Of a stretch of 64,000 bases of DNA, positions 218-59,539 are shown one piece after another. How positions within the stretch are numbered: the first letter of the stretch is position 1; each line of letters begins with the position of its first letter. A program made the position numbers and the translations under genes. The stretch is from a virus (Duplodnaviria; Heunggongvirae; Uroviricota; Caudoviricetes), in the IMG/VR virus record IMGVR_UViG_3300038443_000660, positions 66,082 to 130,081 of that record; one strand, 5' to 3'. The notes under the pieces were generated by a model. That model worked only from the letters and a program-made list of their open reading frames with translations. It was not told the DNA's origin and did not search any database.

Positions 218-672
218 TCTGCTATTCCTTGCCCACAATCAAACACAAAAATATTCTTGTCATTGTAACAATTTTTTACAACATTGGGCCGGTCATCAAA
301 AGCCATGAAAATCGGACCATATTTTTCTTCAATTTCATCGACCAACTCTCTCTTGACTTCCCAATCTGGTCTGAAATCATTCTTCTTTCTCATATACATT
401 TCTGTATAATGCAAACCATTTTTTGCCAACCACGCTTCGGATTGTGGGCGTTCATTTTCTGAACGAGCGGTGACAATGAGATTGATTACATCTGGATTTG
501 CGGAAAGAAGTTTGTATAGCAACAATGTTTGCGGAATCGGATCGTCATTGACTGATTCCTGCATAAATTTTTTCCAGTTTTTTGGCTTTTCCTTGATTAA
601 GGGAAGCCGCCATGAACTGTCACTTAATGTTCCATCCAAATCATGGCAACAAATGAGTTTCTTCATTGACAA
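214..672 (-). CDS. HAD-superfamily phosphatase (polynucleotide 3'-phosphatase / nucleotidase-like)
   Basis: 152 aa; N-terminal CCHDLDGTL is the DxDGT HAD motif I; it sits next to a metallophosphatase. Confidence 0.55.
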   Translation of the reverse strand: MSMKKLICCHDLDGTLSDSSWRLPLIKEKPKNWKKFMQESVNDDPIPQTLLLYKLLSANPDVINLIVTARSENERPQSEAWLAKNGLHYTEMYMRKKNDFRPDWEVKRELVDEIEEKYGPIFMAFDDRPNVVKNCYNDKNIFVFDCGQGIAE

Positions 673-947
673 TTGTTTCCGTAAATTTGATTATTAAAAT
701 ATTCCACGATTTCAGGAGAAGCGGTTATCAGAACGAACTCGATATCAGTTAAACCCAATTCATCATCAGTCGATAGTTCTTCTTTGAGTAGTTCTTTTTC
801 TATCTCTATTTGGTTATCGTCCAAAACAACGTCATAGCCAACGAAATGCAAAATTTCAGTCAAAGCAATGTCATAGCCCACGAAATGCAAAATTTCAGCG
901 GTGTTATTTGGATTAACAGCAATTATTCCGGTTAAAAATTTATTCAT
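663..947 (-). CDS. hypothetical protein with internal tandem duplication
   Basis: 94 aa ORF; EILHFVGYD is repeated because of a ~39 bp direct DNA repeat at 841-900. Confidence 0.35.
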   Translation of the reverse strand: MNKFLTGIIAVNPNNTAEILHFVGYDIALTEILHFVGYDVVLDDNQIEIEKELLKEELSTDDELGLTDIEFVLITASPEIVEYFNNQIYGNNCQ

Positions 948-2279: not shown

Positions 2280-2480
2280 CTTTCAAAACCGTTTTCTAAT
2301 TCATACAATCTATCTAATTAACCTAAATGTTCTTAGCTAACCGAAACCGTTTACAAACATTTTAATCATCCTACCGTTTTCTAATTCATACAATCTATCT
2401 AATTAAAAACTAAATGTTCTTAGCTAAAGGAAATCATTCACGAACATTTATCTAATTCCTACTTTTCAAACATAATCTAT
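2280..2480. repeat. iteron-like direct repeats (2 full ~55 bp copies plus a partial third)
   Basis: accgttttctaattcatacaatctatctaatta..taaatgttcttagctaa occurs at ~2289-2340 and ~2374-2428; a related tctaattcctac...aatctatcaatctaa lies at ~2450-2478; the region has no long ORF. Confidence 0.6.
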
Positions 2481-2566
2481 CAATCTAACACACTAGAAAG
2501 AGGAACGGGTTACATGACTTTATCTCCTGTCTGTTTCACTCAATCTCAACTCAACCCTACATTTAT

Positions 2567-2595
2567 TAATATAATCGGATTCTATAGAATGTCAA
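2567..2595 (-). promoter_or_regulatory. sigma70-like promoter (TTGACA-N17-ATATTA) firing leftward into the repeat block
   Basis: Minus strand reads TTGACATTCTATAGAATCCGATTATATTA; it belongs to the conserved promoter family. Confidence 0.5.
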
Positions 2596-2605
2596 CACCT
2601 ATTTT

Positions 2606-3848: not shown

Positions 3849-5717
3849 ATGTCATTTAAGCATTTCATTACCGAAGCCTCTTTTAATTCCAAAGATGTTC
3901 CAGAAGTAATCAAAAAGGTTTCAAATATCGTATCAGATAAGCTTGGCAAGAAGTTGTATCCATACAATCAAACCGGTTATCAGGAATTGATGTCTGGTGG
4001 AAAAACATATCAATGTTATTTATTCTTCATGGACGACTGTAAAGCAGTAAGATTTAACACAATTAATGGAACTTTTGATTCTATTGAAATCTGGAATAAG
4101 TATAAAACGAATGGTATCGATGAACCGAAATCAGATTTCACTATCCGCCTAGATGGAATGAATATTCTAAAGGTTATTGATTCGCTTGTCAACGTGATTA
4201 AGAAGCCACGAGAAGGAACATATCGCATCAACGTAAACGAAGATTCTGACCAAAATAAGCAGATGATTTTTGAATCAAATGCTGCCGAAGAAGCCGCTAG
4301 ACTTGGATTGCAAAATCTTGGTTATGGTCGATATGGTCGTGAGATTGACGGCGAGATGGTTCAAACACATAGAGTTGATAAGTTGCGTGATCGATTGGTC
4401 GATTTTCAACCTACAGCACCAGAATCCAGAAAGAAGCAAGTCAAAGACCCTCATGACTGGCACATGATGGCAATTAAAACATTTGGTGATACCAAAAATC
4501 TTTCAAGATTATCGTGGTCCGATGTTGAAATCATTGCTGCCAAAAATGGCGTCACTATTCCCGGTTGGGTTAGAGCATCCGGTGTAGGCAAGGGGAAGAA
4601 CAAGACATTTTCTTCTGTTCCATCAGCGCATCTTACGCAACCCGCCGAAACCATGCAGCAGGCCGGTGAACATAAAGGCGTTCAATATTTTGCGAAAATA
4701 TCGCCTCGTGATCCTATCACCAATAAATTTACTTCTGTCAAAGATGATGAATACGCTCAACGCTTGACGAAAATGATGGATGCAGCCCTGAATGCCCCGT
4801 CACACGATGTGATTGAAAAAGAAATGGTCGATCCAGATACACTTTTTGGTAGAATGTCTGACCTAATTAAACTTATCGTCAAAGGCGTTTCTCCATCGTT
4901 GTTCATTTATGGTGGTCCCGGTATTGGTAAAACATTCATTGTTAACAAAACATTGAAAGAAGCTGGTTTGAAAAAGAATCAGGATTACTACATCGTTAAG
5001 GGTAAAATCACACCAACAGCCCTTTATCAAACTCTTTATACCCATAGAAATGGTAATACTATGTTGGTGTTTGACGATGCCGACTCCGCATTTAGAACAG
5101 AAGATTCAGCAAATATTTTGAAAGCCGCTCTTGATTCGTATGAAGAAAGAGAAATTTCATATTCATCCGCCAGAACCATTAACGTAGATAAGTGGTCTGA
5201 TGAAAAACGTGAAGCATATGAAGCTAAACTAGATAAGCATTTGTTGTCTATCGGTGATGACGATGACGATGACGATCTTGAAGACGATGACGATTTTGGT
5301 GCCGATGACAATGCGGCCTTTCCCGGCAATGGTCGTGGTATGAATAAAGGTGAAAAAAAGAAAAAGAAAAAAGAAGAAAAGATAACCAAACTTCCTTCAA
5401 AATTCAAATTCGATGGAAAAATCATCTTCATTTCAAACTTGGCTAGGGACCAAGTTGACGACGCTGTTCTTTCTCGTTCATATAAGATTGATATGGAAAT
5501 GACGGCTGAACAACGCTTCAAGCGCATGGAAAGCATTCTGCCGTATGTTGTACCAGAAGTTGAAGATACAGAGTTGAAAAAGCGTGTCATGGAAGCAATC
5601 AAAGTTAACCACAAGCTTGGTAAACTTGACCTTCCATCCATGAGAATGTTTGAATCTGGTATTAAAGTTGCAGCTTCTGGTTTACCTAACTGGAAGGAAC
5701 TATTAGATTATATCTAA
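3849..5717 (+). CDS. AAA+ ATPase with ~300-aa N-terminal domain of unknown function and poly-Asp/poly-Lys linker
   Basis: Walker A GGPGIGKT, Walker B MLVFDDAD and sensor region AVLSRSYKID; DDDDDDDLEDDDD then KKKKKKEEK; one of only two plus-strand genes. Confidence 0.75.
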   Translation: MSFKHFITEASFNSKDVPEVIKKVSNIVSDKLGKKLYPYNQTGYQELMSGGKTYQCYLFFMDDCKAVRFNTINGTFDSIEIWNKYKTNGIDEPKSDFTIRLDGMNILKVIDSLVNVIKKPREGTYRINVNEDSDQNKQMIFESNAAEEAARLGLQNLGYGRYGREIDGEMVQTHRVDKLRDRLVDFQPTAPESRKKQVKDPHDWHMMAIKTFGDTKNLSRLSWSDVEIIAAKNGVTIPGWVRASGVGKGKNKTFSSVPSAHLTQPAETMQQAGEHKGVQYFAKISPRDPITNKFTSVKDDEYAQRLTKMMDAALNAPSHDVIEKEMVDPDTLFGRMSDLIKLIVKGVSPSLFIYGGPGIGKTFIVNKTLKEAGLKKNQDYYIVKGKITPTALYQTLYTHRNGNTMLVFDDADSAFRTEDSANILKAALDSYEEREISYSSARTINVDKWSDEKREAYEAKLDKHLLSIGDDDDDDDLEDDDDFGADDNAAFPGNGRGMNKGEKKKKKKEEKITKLPSKFKFDGKIIFISNLARDQVDDAVLSRSYKIDMEMTAEQRFKRMESILPYVVPEVEDTELKKRVMEAIKVNHKLGKLDLPSMRMFESGIKVAASGLPNWKELLDYI

Positions 5718-5756: not shown

Positions 5757-5860
5757 TGGTAGGGGAAGTCAGACTCGAACTGACAATTGATATGCATATG
5801 CTTAACCGGAACATATCGGCGGCTCTACACCGCTGTGTCTACCAATTTCACCATTCCCCT
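5757..5860 (-). tRNA. class II tRNA, anticodon ambiguous (UAG-Leu or GUA-Tyr), unusually long (~104 nt)
   Basis: Acceptor AGGGGAA/TTCCCCT with CCA, 3-bp D stem, T-loop TTCGAGT; anticodon loop TGTAGAG has G at position 33; variable region ~35 nt. Confidence 0.45.
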
Positions 5861-18460: not shown

Positions 18461-19621
18461 TTACTGGAATTCCGTTAAATTTTTGCCCTTGCGGTTCAAA
18501 TAATCTTCGGAAACGAATTTGAGAATCACTCTGCCTAGTTCATCGTTTCGCTGTTCCCTAATTGGAGTAACAACTACACCCTCACGGATATTTTCACCAT
18601 TTCCAACTACAGTTTCACCATCAACATATTTTGATACTTCCTCTTGCGTATCTACAATGTCAAGAATAGGGACATGTTGAATATCAAGTTGTTTGAAGAA
18701 CTCGTATTTAAGATCGGCATCCATGTAACCGGTAATGTCCATGAAATCAAATGCTCTAAAGGTTGGTGTTTTTTGTGAATAGTGCAAATCTTGAACACCA
18801 ACACCAAATATTTCACCAAACAAGAAGTATGGACTAATTGACACGCCGATTTGTTTGATACTGTCAATAATACCAGTTTCTTTTAGAGTTTTAACATATA
18901 AATTCTTTGCATTGTTTTCATTATCTTTGAAAACTAGCCCAGATGCACCGAAACCCTTGGAAAATACAACAATCGAATTGCCCTTTCCATCAGAAATCAA
19001 ATCAGGATGTTCAAGATTTGGAATGAATCCAATTCCACAGAAAGTTCCATGCAACTTTTCAGTAATGTAGAACGGACCAATATCGTTTGTCAAAACATTT
19101 GGATATTTTTTGACGTTTTCGATGTCGTATTTTGGAATAGACACGTAAGAGCCGATGTATAAAATTTCACCGTCCATATATGCTGGAATTACTGGTTCAT
19201 ACTTGGTAATACCCAAGAACTCTGAAACGTCATCCCCGACTTGTAGGCAATGTGAAGAATCGCCTACAGAATTATAAAGGATGTTCCCGCCCATTTTCTT
19301 GATTACGGGTAGTAGAATACCTTCTGATAGGACGTTCCGAAGACGAATTGGTCTTACTCGATTACCATCGGGTCCACCAAGCATCCCCTTGTTATTTTTT
19401 TCATCCCAGAAGCCATCTTTCAAAATGTAATCTGGAACGATAGAATCAGCCTGTACATAGACAACCCAATCGCCGGGATTATATCTATGTGAACCATCTT
19501 CAAGCTTGCCAGAAACAATTTGATAACTGAAACCTTTAAGTTTGATAATCGATAACCTATCAGCATTCGGATGGTCGATTACATTCTCGACCACCATTAC
19601 TTTTGATTCAAAATTTGCCAT
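18461..19621 (-). CDS. RNA ligase (Rnl family) with N-terminal tRNA-binding OB domain
   Basis: N-term VIDHPNADRLSIIKLKGF...LRNVLSEGIL (CsaA/Trbp111-type tRNA-binding domain); ITEKLHGT (motif I Lys), REGVVVTP (IV), RVILKFVSEDY (V). Confidence 0.6.
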   Translation of the reverse strand: MANFESKVMVVENVIDHPNADRLSIIKLKGFSYQIVSGKLEDGSHRYNPGDWVVYVQADSIVPDYILKDGFWDEKNNKGMLGGPDGNRVRPIRLRNVLSEGILLPVIKKMGGNILYNSVGDSSHCLQVGDDVSEFLGITKYEPVIPAYMDGEILYIGSYVSIPKYDIENVKKYPNVLTNDIGPFYITEKLHGTFCGIGFIPNLEHPDLISDGKGNSIVVFSKGFGASGLVFKDNENNAKNLYVKTLKETGIIDSIKQIGVSISPYFLFGEIFGVGVQDLHYSQKTPTFRAFDFMDITGYMDADLKYEFFKQLDIQHVPILDIVDTQEEVSKYVDGETVVGNGENIREGVVVTPIREQRNDELGRVILKFVSEDYLNRKGKNLTEFQ

Positions 19622-26545: not shown

Positions 26546-26777
26546 AGAAGCGTGTGTTTTTCTGGAATTTCGTAATATTTCATTGAATTATTATATTCCA
26601 ATATCAGCCAACGTTAAAATGGGCGTCGAACCCATGTTTCCAGTTATCCAACCGGTGTCCTATCCACCTAGACGATTTAACTCAATGCAATCTTAGATCG
26701 GCAAATCCATTTCATGCATCGTGGCGACTGAACTATTTAAACATTGCCGTGTAGAAATAGTTCAATTCTGTTGTTGT

Positions 26778-32669: not shown

Positions 32670-32885
32670 CTAATTCGCTCCATAAAAAATTGCTATCATA
32701 ACTGCAATGAACACGCAGATTACAAAGAAACCGATAACCATTTGATTACTAGTTGAAGTTGACGTTGAGGAAATCAACCAATCATCGTCTTTCCAGTCCG
32801 AAAACAAAGGTTTCACTTCTTTTTCGGAAGGTTTCTTGGTGAGAATGTCATCAAGAAATTTGGAAAGTTTATCAAGCATACCCAT
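32670..32885 (-). CDS. small membrane protein
   Basis: 71 aa with a C-terminal TM helix. Confidence 0.35.
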   Translation of the reverse strand: MGMLDKLSKFLDDILTKKPSEKEVKPLFSDWKDDDWLISSTSTSTSNQMVIGFFVICVFIAVMIAIFYGAN

Positions 32886-33999
32886 TTTTTATCTTCTCGT
32901 CAATCCATTTTGTTCTAATTCGTTTCAATTCTTTACCTAATTCTGGTCCCGGTTCAAAACCTTGTTGAATAAGTAACAAAGAACTACCAACCGGCCACGA
33001 ATCCAGATTTGGATAATCGTTAAAAAATTTGTTCCAAGCATCTGAATTTCGCATTACACCGACAGAAGCCAGATATTGCACCCATGCTCGTTTCTCGATG
33101 TTATTCAACGTGTAATCCAGAATATGATAATTGTCGGTTCTGGAATTGTTGAGAACAAAATATTGCTTGACAAAATCTTGTTCAACAGAAGACGCTTTAT
33201 AACGAGATTTCAGTACATGTAAGACATCTTCGTTGAAGTTAAAGAGCGCTATCAACCGCAACAGATAACTTTTATTGCGAAAATCATTGTAATGAAGACA
33301 CGAATGAGGAATATCGATATATGGTCCGATAGACCTTGACATAGCCTGAATGACAGGGAAATTTCCTATTTCCAAAATTTTTGTTAGTTCTGCCCAGATG
33401 CGTTCACCAGAGATAGATTTAAGACCATCGCCAAGCTTTTCGATGATAGCCAAATTGTCTCTAAGAGTCTGGTCATAAACAATAGTTTTCATCTTACCCA
33501 AGAACCTGAAATATCTCAAAATTCTTAAATAATCTTCCCGAATGCGATCTTCTGCATTACCCACAAATTGTAGATGGCATTGCTTCAAATCTCTCTTGCC
33601 ATCAAAATAATCATAAATTTCACCAAATCGGTCCATGAACATAGCATTGATTGTGAAATCACGGCGGGAAGCGTCCAACCTCCAATCATCGGTAAATTCC
33701 ACGACCGCATGGCGACCATCGGTTTCCTTGTCGATTCGTAATGTAGTTACTTCAAACGGAATTTTATCGACAACAATCGTTACCGTACCATGCTTAAGAC
33801 CGGTAGGAATGACTTCTTTATCAAGTCTAGTGAATATCTCGACAATTTGTTCTGGCAATGCCGTAGTAGCAATGTCGATATCATGCGGCTGGATACCGGA
33901 AAGAAAATCACGCACTGCACCACCGGCAATTCTGGCCTGAAAGCCAGAATTTTCAATCGTTTGCATAATCCATTCGGCAATGGGATTCAGAGATTTCAT
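32872..33999 (-). CDS. cca: tRNA nucleotidyltransferase (CCA-adding enzyme)
   Basis: ARIAGGAVRDFL...PHDIDIAT...TLRID...RRDFTINAM are class II CCA-adding head-domain motifs. Confidence 0.75.
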   Translation of the reverse strand: MKSLNPIAEWIMQTIENSGFQARIAGGAVRDFLSGIQPHDIDIATTALPEQIVEIFTRLDKEVIPTGLKHGTVTIVVDKIPFEVTTLRIDKETDGRHAVVEFTDDWRLDASRRDFTINAMFMDRFGEIYDYFDGKRDLKQCHLQFVGNAEDRIREDYLRILRYFRFLGKMKTIVYDQTLRDNLAIIEKLGDGLKSISGERIWAELTKILEIGNFPVIQAMSRSIGPYIDIPHSCLHYNDFRNKSYLLRLIALFNFNEDVLHVLKSRYKASSVEQDFVKQYFVLNNSRTDNYHILDYTLNNIEKRAWVQYLASVGVMRNSDAWNKFFNDYPNLDSWPVGSSLLLIQQGFEPGPELGKELKRIRTKWIDEKIKNGYA

Positions 34000-55839: not shown

Positions 55840-56529
55840 TTACGAATTAATAGCAGTCTTTTCTTCATCAGTCATGTATGAGGCCGAAGCTGATGCAGTA
55901 GCTGCATATCTTATGCTTGAGCCTACCAAGGAACGAGCCGTATCCATAAAGTTTACCGGATTATAGGCATTAAGTGTTCCTAGATTTGAAACGATTTTTG
56001 CACCACCATTGAATGCTTCAAGCGTAGCACCAAGATATGTTACCGGCCAATTCTTCTTTTCATACTTAGCCAGAAGTTTCTTGGTATCTTCTAAAGAATG
56101 TTCGGTGGAAACATTTTCGTCACCATCCGTAATGATAACAAACTGAACCAAATCAGTTTTCTTCAAACCATTCTTCTTAGGAGTAGAGCCAAATTCACAA
56201 ATTGCATCGTACAGCGGCGTCATACCCCTTGGTGCAATTGACTTGTCATTGGCGGAAAATTCCGTCCAGTTTGAAGCATTCATGTATTTGTATTGAAGAA
56301 TCGGTTCAAGCCTAGACGAACCGTCATTGTAGAGGCGGTTGAAGTTCGGATAGGCTTCCTTGTCAAAGAATGCCAGTGTCAACAAAACATTGACATCATT
56401 ATTGCTTTTTAGTGTATTTAAATACTCATTCAAAGTTGCAATAGTCTTAGACCAATGAGTAGACATAGAACCAGTACGGTCAACCAAAACATATAGATTA
56501 AGAGTCTTCTTTTCAGTGTTAGTAGTCAA
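55840..56529 (-). CDS. von Willebrand factor A (vWA) domain protein
   Basis: MIDAS motif LVDRTGSMS; later VIITDGDEN. Confidence 0.6.
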   Translation of the reverse strand: MTTNTEKKTLNLYVLVDRTGSMSTHWSKTIATLNEYLNTLKSNNDVNVLLTLAFFDKEAYPNFNRLYNDGSSRLEPILQYKYMNASNWTEFSANDKSIAPRGMTPLYDAICEFGSTPKKNGLKKTDLVQFVIITDGDENVSTEHSLEDTKKLLAKYEKKNWPVTYLGATLEAFNGGAKIVSNLGTLNAYNPVNFMDTARSLVGSSIRYAATASASASYMTDEEKTAINS

Positions 56530-56560
56530 AATTTTCCTCGAATTGTTTGAGTTGTAGATA

Positions 56561-56583
56561 AAATAAAAGGGCCATTCAGGCCC
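56561..56583 (-). terminator. rho-independent terminator closing the ORF-free region
   Basis: gggcc-attca-ggccc with TTTTATTTT on the minus strand. Confidence 0.55.
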
Positions 56584-56585
56584 AT

Positions 56586-57425
56586 ATTATAAATTTCAAA
56601 GATATAAGTGAAACGTTGAGATTTAAGTTTCGCCACGGCCTTTCAGGACATTATAGGTTTGTTGCGCAAACCCTTCTTCCCTTATCCACCACCTTTTGAG
56701 TGGTATCCGCTAGGAATTTTTTGTATTCGACATCCACGATTTACTCGGCAACTTCTACATTAAATAGACCGGCCAAAGTCCACCTAATATTTCCCTTACC
56801 AAATTCCAACTACCTTGCGGGTAATCAGAACACCATATTCTGTTTCCAGTATGGTATTAATTCCCTTCATCGTGAACCGGAACAGACTTTGCTTTTTTAT
56901 AATAGACATTGGAATTGAACCAATATTCTATCGCTCCAAATGCGATTGCCTTACCATTCGGCTAGTCTGTAACCCACCAAGACGTGCTGTTCCAGTTGTT
57001 CCATAAACTTTTGGTCTACAGAATGCAACACGCCTCATATTTTCGACTTGCGGTCTACTCATGATCTTTCAAGAATCAGTTACCTTGCGGTCCCAAATCC
57101 TATCAGAATGACATTCGCCCTTGTCTGCTAAACTCGGACTAAAAATGCCCCAAAACGTTAGCTATCAACCATGGATAAGTTTTGCGTGGTATAAGATGCT
57201 TGCGGCATCGATTTCGGTCCAGTGTTACCCAACCTAATCTTTTTCTACCCTTATCGTCCGATCTATTTCCAACCTTGCGATTGAAACCATGCCTAAGTCT
57301 ATCAAACTCGTGCATGAAGCCCGTTCGCCGTATGCAACCTCTATTTCTAGAGTCGATAGAAACATGGGATTTCTATCTGTCAGAGTGTTACCACTCCTAT
57401 CATCACACGGAAAAATTCCTTGGTA
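56586..57425 (-). ncRNA. candidate large structured non-coding RNA (~0.85 kb, unclassified)
   Basis: No ORF over 85 aa; GC-richer than the backbone; at least five CCGCAAGG-type hairpins with GCAA (GNRA) loops on the minus strand; terminator at the 3' side. Confidence 0.35.
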
Positions 57426-57956
57426 TTAGTTACCATTGACTAATACAATTTTCTCCACAAATGTAATAGCTTTAGATATTTCTATCTTAAACCATTCTCC
57501 GTTGTTTTCGTAGCCAACCAATTCTTTTATTAGTAATTGTTCAGCCAATTTTCTATCATTAACTTGTCTTAAGTGACATAAGTTATATGATCTTGTTGGA
57601 TCACCAGTTTGATAAACTGATAGTCTTCGTTTTATGTTTAAAGCACATCCAATTTTAACCCAACCGGGCCATGCCTTATTTTCTATAACATAAACTGAAC
57701 CACTTTTTTGTGAATTTTGCGTTCCTACTACTCTATTCGCATCTTCACAAACAGATTCAACGTTTATTTTTACTTCTTTTAAGATTCTCTCTTTTTTTCG
57801 AGTTTCTTTCTGTAAGGCGATGTTCTGCTTTCTCTTATTACGCCTACCATTCAATGTCAAGTTTTTGTTTCTTGTTGTTATTTGGCAGGCGACACATGTT
57901 TTTTCATAACTATCATGCTTTGAACATGTCCATTTATAATTGTTTATGAAGGACAT
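57426..57956 (-). CDS. T5orf172-domain (GIY-YIG-like) protein with N-terminal Cys cluster
   Basis: GSVYVIENKAWPGWVKIGCALNIKRRLSVYQTGDP...EWFKI; N-term CSKHDSYEKTCVAC. Confidence 0.55.
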   Translation of the reverse strand: MSFINNYKWTCSKHDSYEKTCVACQITTRNKNLTLNGRRNKRKQNIALQKETRKKERILKEVKINVESVCEDANRVVGTQNSQKSGSVYVIENKAWPGWVKIGCALNIKRRLSVYQTGDPTRSYNLCHLRQVNDRKLAEQLLIKELVGYENNGEWFKIEISKAITFVEKIVLVNGN

Positions 57957-58747: not shown

Positions 58748-58939
58748 TCACTTTTTCTCTAGAAATCTATTTTCAGTTTCACGAATGAACAGACATGTCG
58801 TGGAATGTATTCCACAATATTCACGTTCTATCATTTCAATCAATTTCCATCCAAAATCGCCTTGTTCATTCAGCCATTCTATGGATATCTGGGTCTTTTT
58901 ACCCGGATTGATATGTTTCTTATATTCGTATTGTTTCAT
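58748..58939 (-). CDS. hypothetical protein
   Basis: 63 aa ORF. Confidence 0.3.
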   Translation of the reverse strand: MKQYEYKKHINPGKKTQISIEWLNEQGDFGWKLIEMIEREYCGIHSTTCLFIRETENRFLEKK

Positions 58940-58941
58940 GG

Positions 58942-59364
58942 TTAATCCATCCTGCTACCCGGATAGGCGTTGATACCAGCTTCCCGAAGGACATTGGCAA
59001 AGGCACGAGCGTAAGCTTCCTTTCGCTGCATCGACTGCCCGCCTTCCGAAACCCAAATCTCATAGCCGCCATAGTATCCGGCATGGCCACGAACGCCGTT
59101 CTTCTTGCACCACGTCACAAACGGGCCTCGACCGGGCGCAATCGTCACCCACGCAAAACCACAAACCCCGCCTTCCTCGTAATAGGTCGGCTTCGAATAA
59201 TCGATCTTGTCAGACAGGCCGATGGCCGAACCGACAATCATTGGGACAGGGCGAGTCGCCTCAAGGGCAGCAAGACCAGCCGCACGAGCCTTCTCATAAA
59301 GAATGCCCGCCTGCTTAGGCGTCATCTTGACCGACTTCTTAACCGAATTCTCCATTTCTCTCAT
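58942..59364 (-). CDS. hypothetical protein (GC-rich)
   Basis: 140 aa, Gly/Ala-rich, ~55 percent GC. Confidence 0.45.
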   Translation of the reverse strand: MREMENSVKKSVKMTPKQAGILYEKARAAGLAALEATRPVPMIVGSAIGLSDKIDYSKPTYYEEGGVCGFAWVTIAPGRGPFVTWCKKNGVRGHAGYYGGYEIWVSEGGQSMQRKEAYARAFANVLREAGINAYPGSRMD

Positions 59365-59398
59365 TCTCCTAAAAAGAGGAAACCAACGATGTATCTTT

Positions 59399-59427
59399 TA
59401 TATAGAATGAAATTGTAGAAGTGTCAA
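59399..59427 (-). promoter_or_regulatory. sigma70-like promoter TTGACA-N17-TATATA
   Basis: Minus strand: TTGACACTTCTACAATTTCATTCTATATA. Confidence 0.55.
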
Positions 59428-59447: not shown

Positions 59448-59539
59448 TGGTAGGGGACCAAGGATTTGAACCTTGTCGAGAACGATAATCTGTCGCTGAA
59501 AGGTTTATAAAACCTCCCTGTGTACCAACACCATCCCCC
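59448..59539 (-). tRNA. tRNA-like gene, 92 nt, anticodon possibly UAU, very long variable region
   Basis: Acceptor GGGGGAT/GTCCCCT (two G-U) plus A plus CCA, T arm CAAGG-TTCAAAT-CCTTG, anticodon stem GAGGT/ACCTT with loop TTTATAA, ~24-nt variable region. Confidence 0.4.

Follow-up and report, generated by a model that had tools for sequence, protein, structure and literature searches.

A leftward GOLLD RNA gene with a tRNA-like linker module in the tRNA island of a tailed phage

Introduction

GOLLD RNAs were first described by Weinberg et al. in 2009, as cited in PMC12286853. Their 3′ region is universally conserved and their 5′ region less so, and many members exceed 800 nt (PMC12286853). 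By cryo-EM the env-38 GOLLD is a 14-mer nanocage whose linker is disordered and lies inside (PDB 9MEE; PMC12286853). The S. agalactiae GOLLD forms a dodecamer (9L0R) and its 3′ domain a decamer (9LMF); according to PMC12990946 this RNA lacks P21b yet assembles, and loss of P21b accompanies a different stoichiometry. In the solved GOLLDs symmetric L21-L21 kissing contacts unite two half-shells (PMC12286853; PMC12990946). A tRNA nested in the linker of some members is a published trait of the family (PMC6582537; PMC12286853; PMC12990946). A tRNA-Phe in J13/15 that points inward has been described together with the idea of "inhibited storage" (PMC12990946), and in Mycobacterium aubagnense a pseudo-tRNA lies within GOLLD, with no separate transcript detected (PMC6582537). 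ROOL is likewise a large ornate phage-associated RNA that occurs near tRNAs and forms RNA-only cages, but it is unrelated in sequence and fold. GOLLD genes themselves lie in phages or prophages, mostly within or next to tRNA clusters, and a rise of expression in lytic growth is counted among the features of the family.

The window analysed here is a 64,000-nt stretch of a Caudoviricetes genome (IMG/VR record IMGVR_UViG_3300038443_000660, positions 66,082 to 130,081). A first-pass annotation had proposed that positions 56586-57425 encode a large structured non-coding RNA, read leftward and ended by a terminator, and had guessed at the GOLLD/ROOL class. A covariance-model match to GOLLD, covariation and the terminator bear out the first proposal, and the guess was on target: the match to RF02032 exceeds the gathering score and makes the RNA a GOLLD. 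There is little doubt that the region is a GOLLD RNA (RF02032) gene, oriented leftward and ended by an intrinsic terminator at 56583-56560, and no observation speaks against this identity. The copy is an ordinary member of the curated family, in a compact variant.

56562..57412, minus strand: whole GOLLD RNA gene, about 850 nt, 5′ end approximate; placed by Rfam match, 5′-domain homology and strand-specific fold

Family membership and the conserved 3′ domain

The full RF02032 model (positions 1-416 of 416) aligns to the minus strand from 57036 to 56613 with 168.5 bits, above the gathering score of 150 (E 1.6e-45 in the window-wide search, 3.5e-47 in that of the region). Apart from GOLLD, a search of the region with a cutoff of E 1 returned only the nested tRNA and one chance-level hit. 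ROOL, HEARO, group I and II introns, RNase P and OLE gave no match in the window at gathering scores, and none in 56300-57700 at E up to 1. The Infernal search against Rfam that the first-pass annotation had suggested returns a full-length GOLLD, with ROOL, HEARO, introns and RNase P absent. Its accession for GOLLD, RF01998, was wrong (the correct one is RF02032), and its remark that the RNA may be new gives way to a full-length match to a curated family. The model covers the conserved 3′ domain only and leaves 57412-57037 outside; these approximately 375 nt are expected as the 5′ domain, since published GOLLDs consist of conserved 3′ and variable 5′ regions.

The locus resembles the rest of the family in its 3′-domain match, variable 5′ domain (about 400 nt in the family), linker, setting in a phage and tRNA island, and length of about 850 nt. 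It differs in its compact 3′ domain.

56613..56898, minus strand: conserved 3′ core, model positions about 130-416, from the cmscan alignment
56773..56788, minus strand: P21-region hairpin GGAC-UUUGGCC-GGUC, with the self-complementary GGCC in its loop

Blocks of the 3′ core comprise AAAAAAGCAAAGUCU, the hairpin CCCGCAAGG, GAGUA, GGUGGAUAAGG and AAUCUCA. The helices and blocks of the 3′ domain (opening hairpin, long-range helix, CGCAA hairpin, GAGUA, GGAUAAGG, AAUCUCA) are present with few non-canonical pairs. Two peripheral consensus hairpins, at model positions about 244-262 and 308-325, are missing. This compact form is common to the relative L024, and the other relatives compared have both hairpins. 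In the same P21-region loop relatives carry UUAGCG(C), CUAGCUAG, UUAA or UCGA. By analogy with the solved structures, we infer that the GGCC-loop hairpin corresponds to their L21 self-kissing loop.

The env-38 RNA has the same 3′-domain family and a linker at the equivalent place, but its linker is without a tRNA and it carries P21a and P21b, against one P21-region hairpin here. The S. agalactiae form, as described in PMC12990946, is likewise reduced, without P21b; compared by that description, it differs from the present locus in a 5′ domain without P9 and P11a-c and in being bacterial or prophage-borne. This form shows that compact GOLLD variants are functional assemblers.

The recurring motif CTTGCGG

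The first-pass annotation had drawn attention to at least five plus-strand copies of CTTGCGG, each forming on the minus strand a stem with a GCAA tetraloop. The recurrence is real: the region has four exact plus-strand copies, starting at 56814, 57047, 57084 and 57199, and a fifth, related copy at 57274 that reads CTTGCGA, so that the count of exact copies was one too high and the coordinates were a few bases off. Both strands of the window hold 13 copies against 3.6 expected, and none of 100 shuffles reaches 13. With expectations taken from the density in the rest of the window, the 851 nt of the gene hold four plus-strand CTTGCGG against 0.07 (Poisson P about 8e-7) and five CTTGCG against 0.19 (P about 2e-6). 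Each copy, read on the minus strand, does cap a stem, but most caps are 5-nt CGCAA loops, both in the Rfam consensus and in the 20-sequence alignment described below; one of the five, the copy at 57084 (ACC-GCAA-GGU), is a true GCAA tetraloop. The recurrence is explained by family membership, since CGCAAG loops are a hallmark of GOLLD hairpins.

57195..57209, minus strand: hairpin GAUGC-CGCAA-GCAUC, present as a CGCAA-loop version in most relatives (alignment columns about 325-345)
57045..57055, minus strand: hairpin GAC-CGCAA-GUC, helix 7 of the 5′-domain alignment, 100% paired, within the block GAGUA-NNN-CGCAAG-NN-GAAA

Gene neighbourhood

The longest open reading frame that overlaps 56586-57425 in any frame has 85 aa (57182-57439, plus strand), exactly the ceiling that the first-pass annotation had named. 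A Pfam search of the 85-aa and 72-aa frames in this interval gave no match. The gene was also said to be richer in GC than its surroundings, and it is (41.8% for 56562-57412 against 38.6% for the window), but the excess is modest.

Conserved GOLLD sequence starts directly past the stop codon (57426-57428) of the T5orf172 gene, an assignment that Pfam confirms (PF10544, E 1.5e-12). On the other side lies a gene at 55840-56529 that had been called vWA; its product has no Pfam hit and its PHROG match is 7371, a family of unknown function, which leaves the label unconfirmed. The proteins flanking the GOLLD gene match PHROG families, and the relatives of the flanking protein in IMG/VR are only 29-36% identical. 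The GOLLD gene has the same leftward orientation as all its neighbours. ARAGORN finds 19 tRNA genes in the window, all on the minus strand, and the window further encodes an RNA ligase (PF09414, 18461-19621) and a protein with a PolyA_pol head domain (PF01743, 32872-33999), a CCA-adding-type nucleotidyltransferase.

Mycobacterial GOLLDs offer a close parallel, with a tRNA or pseudo-tRNA nested in the linker (J13/15) and a locus in a tRNA cluster (PMC6582537; PMC12990946, citing Morgado 2020). A homing-endonuclease-type gene is nearby in both cases, HNH there and T5orf172 here. In contrast to the phage contig of virulent type studied here, the mycobacterial copies carry a tRNA-Phe or pseudo-tRNA in a chromosomal or horizontally transferred array.

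Strand-specific folding, terminator and promoter

The minus strand of the gene folds at -253.9 kcal/mol (z -4.94), and none of 20 shuffles does as well; the plus strand folds at -177.8 kcal/mol (z -0.12). The terminator that had been reported to close the unit in minus orientation is found as a stem followed by a U-run, about 30 nt past the last conserved GOLLD motif. A GC hairpin and T-run likewise lie 3′ of GOLLD in phiCbK and in three of the loci introduced below (L012, L027 and L038).

56560..56583, minus strand: intrinsic terminator, stem GGGCC-UGAAU-GGCCC (56583-56569), then the U-run UUUUAUUUUA

A scan of the minus strand between the T5orf172 stop (57426) and the RNA 5′ end found no sigma-70-like promoter, and inspection of 57520-57400 for a promoter of its own yielded poor candidates only. 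The nearest promoter-like site on the minus strand is at 58159-58131, upstream of T5orf172. Directly upstream of GOLLD, phiCbK and L009 have the promoter-like TTGAC(G/A)-N17-TAGAAC/TAGATT. Co-transcription with upstream genes, followed by processing, is plausible, since several relatives have a same-strand tRNA gene directly upstream of GOLLD.

Relatives of the locus

Relatives were gathered from IMG/VR and JGI metagenomes with the near-invariant block GAGUA-NNN-CGCAAG-NN-GAAA...GUG-NN-GCAU as pattern. The resulting set comprises 20 non-redundant sequences (the window and 19 relatives, cultured phiCbK-like phages included) whose 5′ domains are about 40-65% identical in pairwise comparison; IMG/VR viral contigs and cultured phages carry the relatives. 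L024 is the nearest of those collected, at 72% identity over 419 nt, and none is the window's own phage. A close relative of that phage was sought by megablast, and no collected locus matches the window. A first DNA pattern, TGTTGCATT...GAACAACTGG, had given 13 loci, of which only L009, L012 and L017 are GOLLD; the others fit chance and were dropped. In place of a protein gene, whose intact presence in relatives the first-pass annotation had considered, the relatives have the same RNA.

When the region was compared by blastn with 50,697 phage records, the only match was a 115-nt block, the opening hairpin plus tRNA, in phiCbK-like phages. This block is 81% identical in 18 phiCbK-like Caulobacter phages, whose records annotate it only as "tRNA-Gly" or "tRNA-Lys". 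A full Rfam GOLLD with nested tRNA is found in phiCbK (165.3 bits), and copies of this architecture in phiCbK, Karma and L012 reach 165-174 bits. KY555147.1, a phiCbK-like phage, is a row in the published GOLLD alignment (Supplementary File 3), which spans the 3′ end only.

Blocks in common with phiCbK run throughout the 5′ part of the window's copy. UGACAG, UCCCAU, GGGUAAC and GAGUA-NNN-CGCAAG-NN-GAAA recur in the phiCbK-like group (phiCbK, Karma, Magneto, Ccr), as do the same opening hairpin, the same linker position of the tRNA-like module and the 3′ terminator. The differences are considerable: genome base composition is very unlike, the 5′ domains share only about 50% identity, the phiCbK-like phages have UCC or CUU as anticodon where this copy has UUG, the two hairpins absent here are retained in the phiCbK copies, and the promoter-like TTGACG-N17-TAGAAC upstream of the phiCbK copies has no recognised counterpart here. 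In the relative BL57 a CDS annotated as "hypothetical protein" lies over the GOLLD 5′ domain.

Covariation in the 5′ domain

The 5′ domain is of a subtype found in the phiCbK-like phages and is supported by comparison across all 20 loci.

57037..57412, minus strand: variable 5′ domain, phiCbK-like subtype, about 375 nt, homologous in 20 loci
57382..57397, minus strand: helix 1, hairpin GGAGUG-GUAA-CACUCU with a GNRA loop
57364..57368, minus strand: helix 2, 5′ strand CCCAU of the long-range helix, pairing with GUGGG at 56977-56973
56973..56977, minus strand: 3′ strand GUGGG of the long-range helix, directly before the linker
57261-57251 with 57178-57169, minus strand: internal helix, from the covariation alignment
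57138-57119, minus strand: internal helix, from the covariation alignment
about 56975..57036, minus strand: long opening hairpin of the Rfam model, model positions 1-62, containing helices 8 and 9 (97% paired)

From the 20 sequences RNAalifold predicts 50 pairs in nine helices of the 5′-domain alignment. Standard pairs occupy 94.1% of cells, as against 39-43% when the partners are slid by 1-3 columns and 67% after column shuffling, and none of 500 shuffles reaches the observed values. The covariation score is 0.759, compared with 0.09-0.16 for slid partners, and compensatory changes on both sides occur in 42 of the 50 pairs, which gives the helices the comparative support that the first-pass annotation had looked for. 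All six pairs of helix 1 covary, with 4-5 pair types each. The long-range helix CCCAU/GUGGG, which closes the whole 5′ domain, is paired in 95% of cases and shows CG/UA/AU covariation at four of its five pairs.

A profile of this 5′ subtype, run with nhmmer against the 5′ domain of env-38, which has a P1-P13 architecture, reached a best E of about 0.3 on an env-38 text that is imperfect (815 of 833 nt). Contacts of the env-38 cap are not transferable to this locus, since the profile has no significant similarity to that imperfect text.

The tRNA-like module in the linker

The RNA has a two-domain layout, in which an approximately 375-nt 5′ domain and a long hairpin are followed by a single-stranded linker with a tRNA-shaped module and then by the 3′ core. 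The linker between the domains is 87 nt long. The tRNA-like element within it had gone unnoticed in the first-pass annotation.

56899..56972, minus strand: tRNA-like module in the GOLLD linker, Rfam tRNA RF00005 at 54.8 bits (gathering 29), ARAGORN tRNA-Gln(ttg)

Its anticodon loop is AUUUGGA (UUG, "Gln"), its D and T loops are canonical, and it lacks an encoded CCA. Mismatches at 1:72 (U-U) and 3:70 (C-A) leave the acceptor stem short of seven paired bases; the top of this stem is mismatched in most relatives too. The module is present in normal order at 17 of the 20 loci (13 by ARAGORN, and L024, L028, L031 and L039 by D- and T-loop motifs), in permuted order at two, and is absent in L041.

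The triplet at the anticodon position varies widely. Twelve ARAGORN calls have a defined anticodon, and nine different triplets occur among them, with Lys in four. U33 and R37 are mostly kept and positions 34-36 vary. "Ser" and "Leu" anticodons occur on module bodies without a long variable arm, and non-canonical loops occur as well, with G33 or A33 in the phiCbK group and a 6-nt loop in L032. The 3′ half of GOLLD (columns 441 to about 880) is invariant across nine phiCbK-like phages barring seven columns, five of which are contiguous and correspond to the anticodon loop (CGUCCUA, CUCUUAA, CAUCCUA); the other two are single-base differences. Anticodon-loop change of this kind is also seen within the pairs L012/L027 and L032/L034. 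Column 577, the one further variable column of the 3′ core within the phiCbK group, was considered as a partner co-varying with the loop and rejected; it follows the anticodon allele in seven of the nine phages, which fits linkage rather than pairing.

Proposed mechanism and alternative explanations

The GOLLD RNA would be made during infection as part of the phage tRNA island, to judge from its genomic context. By analogy with the 14-mer of env-38 and the 10- and 12-mers of S. agalactiae, copies of the RNA may bind each other via kissing loops and A-minor contacts. They would probably form a closed homo-oligomeric cage of RNA alone, with the linker directed to the interior as in those structures, and the tRNA-like module with it. 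Indirect signs of such assembly are the retained 3′ core and the self-complementary GGCC of the P21-region loop, which fits a symmetric L21-L21 contact. The number of subunits is not predictable from the sequence, because the second P21-region hairpin is missing, as in the dodecameric S. agalactiae GOLLD. Its most likely role is in tRNA or translation biology, with tRNA-shaped modules kept in or on the cage, as suggested by the 19 tRNAs, the RNA ligase and the CCA-adding-type nucleotidyltransferase of the same window.

Two readings deny that this is a GOLLD gene at all. A decayed protein gene or plain spacer with incidental hairpins might be suspected from the lack of any frame above 85 aa and from the "hypothetical protein" CDS over the 5′ domain in BL57. 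The full-length model match, the short frames without Pfam match, the strand-specific folding and helices preserved by compensatory changes at 40-65% identity speak against this; the model match and the covariation alignment refute it, and it keeps practically no probability. Equally close to nil is the chance that the locus belongs to a new class of large RNA that merely resembles GOLLD. Its 5′ domain does lie outside the Rfam model and has no sequence match to that of env-38, and two 3′ hairpins are missing, but the GOLLD model is matched from 1 to 416 above a curated threshold, and variability of the 5′ domain is itself one of the traits that define GOLLD (PMC12286853). The phiCbK-like phages, whose 3′ ends sit in the published GOLLD alignment, carry this 5′ subtype as well; the matches in the window and phiCbK and the KY555147.1 row refute the idea of a separate class.

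The window encodes an RNA ligase, and such a ligase is a classic tRNA-repair counter-defence gene (T4 Rnl1/PrrC). Within the GOLLD reading, the question is what the module is for. GOLLD might mainly be a precursor or store of a genuine tRNA-Gln(UUG) that is released by RNase P and 3′ processing, or retained in the cage, and then used in translation. The module's 54.8-bit score, canonical D and T loops, U33 and purine at position 37 are as such a tRNA would have them, it is the sole tRNA-Gln among the 19 tRNAs of the window, a CCA-adding-type enzyme is encoded nearby, and a storage idea has been raised for the family (PMC12990946). Nevertheless we regard this as unlikely. The acceptor stem carries two mismatches here and is mismatched at its top in most relatives, the phiCbK copy fits the tRNA model at positions 4-67 only, and among the relatives several show either a non-canonical anticodon loop or a "Ser" or "Leu" anticodon on a body that lacks the long variable arm. 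The nested gene of Mycobacterium aubagnense yielded no separate tRNA that could be detected (PMC6582537), and the making of a tRNA needs no conserved, covarying scaffold of 800 nt. Alternatively, the cage could display many tRNA mimics as a decoy for anticodon-directed nucleases or other tRNA-targeting defences, with the loop re-targeted in an arms race. This would account for the nine triplets in 12 ARAGORN calls, for anticodon-loop columns that vary on a near-invariant GOLLD 3′ half in nine phiCbK-like phages, and for changes at 34-36 with U33 and R37 mostly kept, and the RNA ligase would suit it. [quoted passage not shown] It appears very unlikely.

A broader reading of the GOLLD linker, to which we give a small chance on comparative sequence grounds, is that in this GOLLD subclass the module belongs to the working core of the RNA and is no passenger tRNA gene, so that the RNA would present a cage of 10-14 tethered mimics with a re-targetable anticodon. 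It is suggested because the module occupies the same place in 19 of the 20 loci and its anticodon is swapped between near-identical phages. If this were true, the tethered mimics could bait anticodon-directed host defences or tRNA-modifying enzymes, and GOLLD would have its first concrete function.

An apparently empty 0.85 kb is here a GOLLD RNA gene that any Rfam-based pipeline would label. It adds a phage lineage and a compact 3′-domain variant to a structurally solved family, and a useful by-product is that its 5′ subtype is shared by the phiCbK-like Caulobacter phages, which are in culture and open to genetic work. If the observations on the module hold, work on GOLLD function is pointed to the linker module and not to the cage alone.

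Circularly permuted modules

The observations on the linker module might be the only parts of this analysis worth further work. A literature search, conducted without the 2009 GOLLD paper and Morgado 2020, found no report that connects GOLLD to permuted tRNAs or to varying anticodons, and the change of anticodon triplet between near-identical relatives together with circular permutation may be new. The permuted modules are those of L009 and L030, where ARAGORN detects a tRNA only after the halves are swapped. In both, the T arm comes first, with the 3′ strand of the acceptor stem and CCA behind it; a hairpin of 46-49 nt follows, and after it the 5′ strand of the acceptor stem, the D arm and the anticodon arm. 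All seven base pairs of the acceptor stem are intact in both, with a compensatory change from G2:C71 to C2:G71 between L009 and L030. The permuted module is attached to GOLLD at its variable-loop region, and the hairpin caps its acceptor end.

Variation and permutation of the nested tRNA-like module

In the 3′ half of GOLLD, the large structured phage RNA, nine near-identical phiCbK-like Caulobacter phages vary at five contiguous columns and at two single-base differences, the rest being invariant. The five columns are the anticodon loop of the tRNA-like module nested in the GOLLD linker, and the anticodon in these phages is either UCC or CUU. Across the wider subtype, comprising the relatives that have the window-type 5′ domain, the triplet of the module varies almost everywhere (nine different triplets among 12 calls). 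Two metagenomic loci, L009 and L030, carry a circularly permuted version in the linker, in which the T arm, the acceptor 3′ strand and CCA are followed by a 46-49-nt hairpin and then by the acceptor 5′ strand, D arm and anticodon arm. Only once the halves are rearranged does ARAGORN call a tRNA in these modules, and the two acceptor stems differ by a compensatory change.

L001, L017 and L042-L048 (the phiCbK-like phages), window equivalent 56972-56899: tRNA-like module, GOLLD linker
L009, about 2440-2600, minus strand: permuted tRNA-like module, GOLLD linker
L030, about 640-800, plus strand: permuted tRNA-like module, GOLLD linker

The phiCbK-like GOLLD loci

Directly upstream of the GOLLD gene, and in divergent orientation, the phiCbK-like phages L001 and L017 have a permuted tmRNA gene of the two-piece type. 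It matches Rfam RF04321 with 71 bits, and a tag peptide is given by ARAGORN. GOLLD itself is unannotated in the nine phiCbK-like records whose annotation was inspected, where the nested tRNA alone is marked. In the record of Caulobacter phage BL57 a "hypothetical protein" CDS overlies the GOLLD 5′ domain and is probably a mis-annotation.

L001, 1608-2047, minus strand: permuted tmRNA gene (Rfam RF04321, ARAGORN)
L017, 4226-4665, plus strand: permuted tmRNA gene (Rfam RF04321, ARAGORN)
L048 (phage BL57), 310-516: CDS BL57_146c (record annotation)

Other genes of the window

The window GOLLD is adjoined on its upstream side by a T5orf172-domain gene; mycobacterial GOLLD loci are reported to have an HNH endonuclease as neighbour (PMC6582537). 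An RNA ligase and a CCA-adding-type nucleotidyltransferase share the tRNA-rich stretch of the window and look like a tRNA repair/maturation toolkit. Three tRNA calls are unusual. At one of them (5760-5860) ARAGORN makes no tRNA call despite the Rfam tRNA match, possibly because of inserts or introns.

57426-57956, minus strand: T5orf172-domain gene, immediately upstream of GOLLD
18461-19621, minus strand: RNA ligase (PF09414 and OB-fold domain)
32872-33999, minus strand: PolyA_pol-head or CCA-adding-type nucleotidyltransferase (PF01743)
26610-26683, minus strand: tRNA with two-base anticodon (ARAGORN)
59448-59539, minus strand: tRNA-Ile(tat), 92 nt
5760-5860, minus strand: tRNA match, 101 nt (Rfam)
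58942-59364, minus strand: 140-aa ORF (PHROG 22149, function unknown)
3849-5717, plus strand: 622-aa ORF (matches to AAA_16 and STAND NTPase, weak and below threshold)

The 140-aa ORF, for which a Pfam search gave no match and PHROG 22149 is the only assignment, falls on a GC-rich island at 58800-59400 (0.49-0.54 vs a window mean of 0.386) that may have been acquired recently. The 622-aa ORF is the sole plus-strand ORF of at least 350 aa in the window; the minus strand carries the four remaining large ORFs and every one of the 19 tRNA genes.
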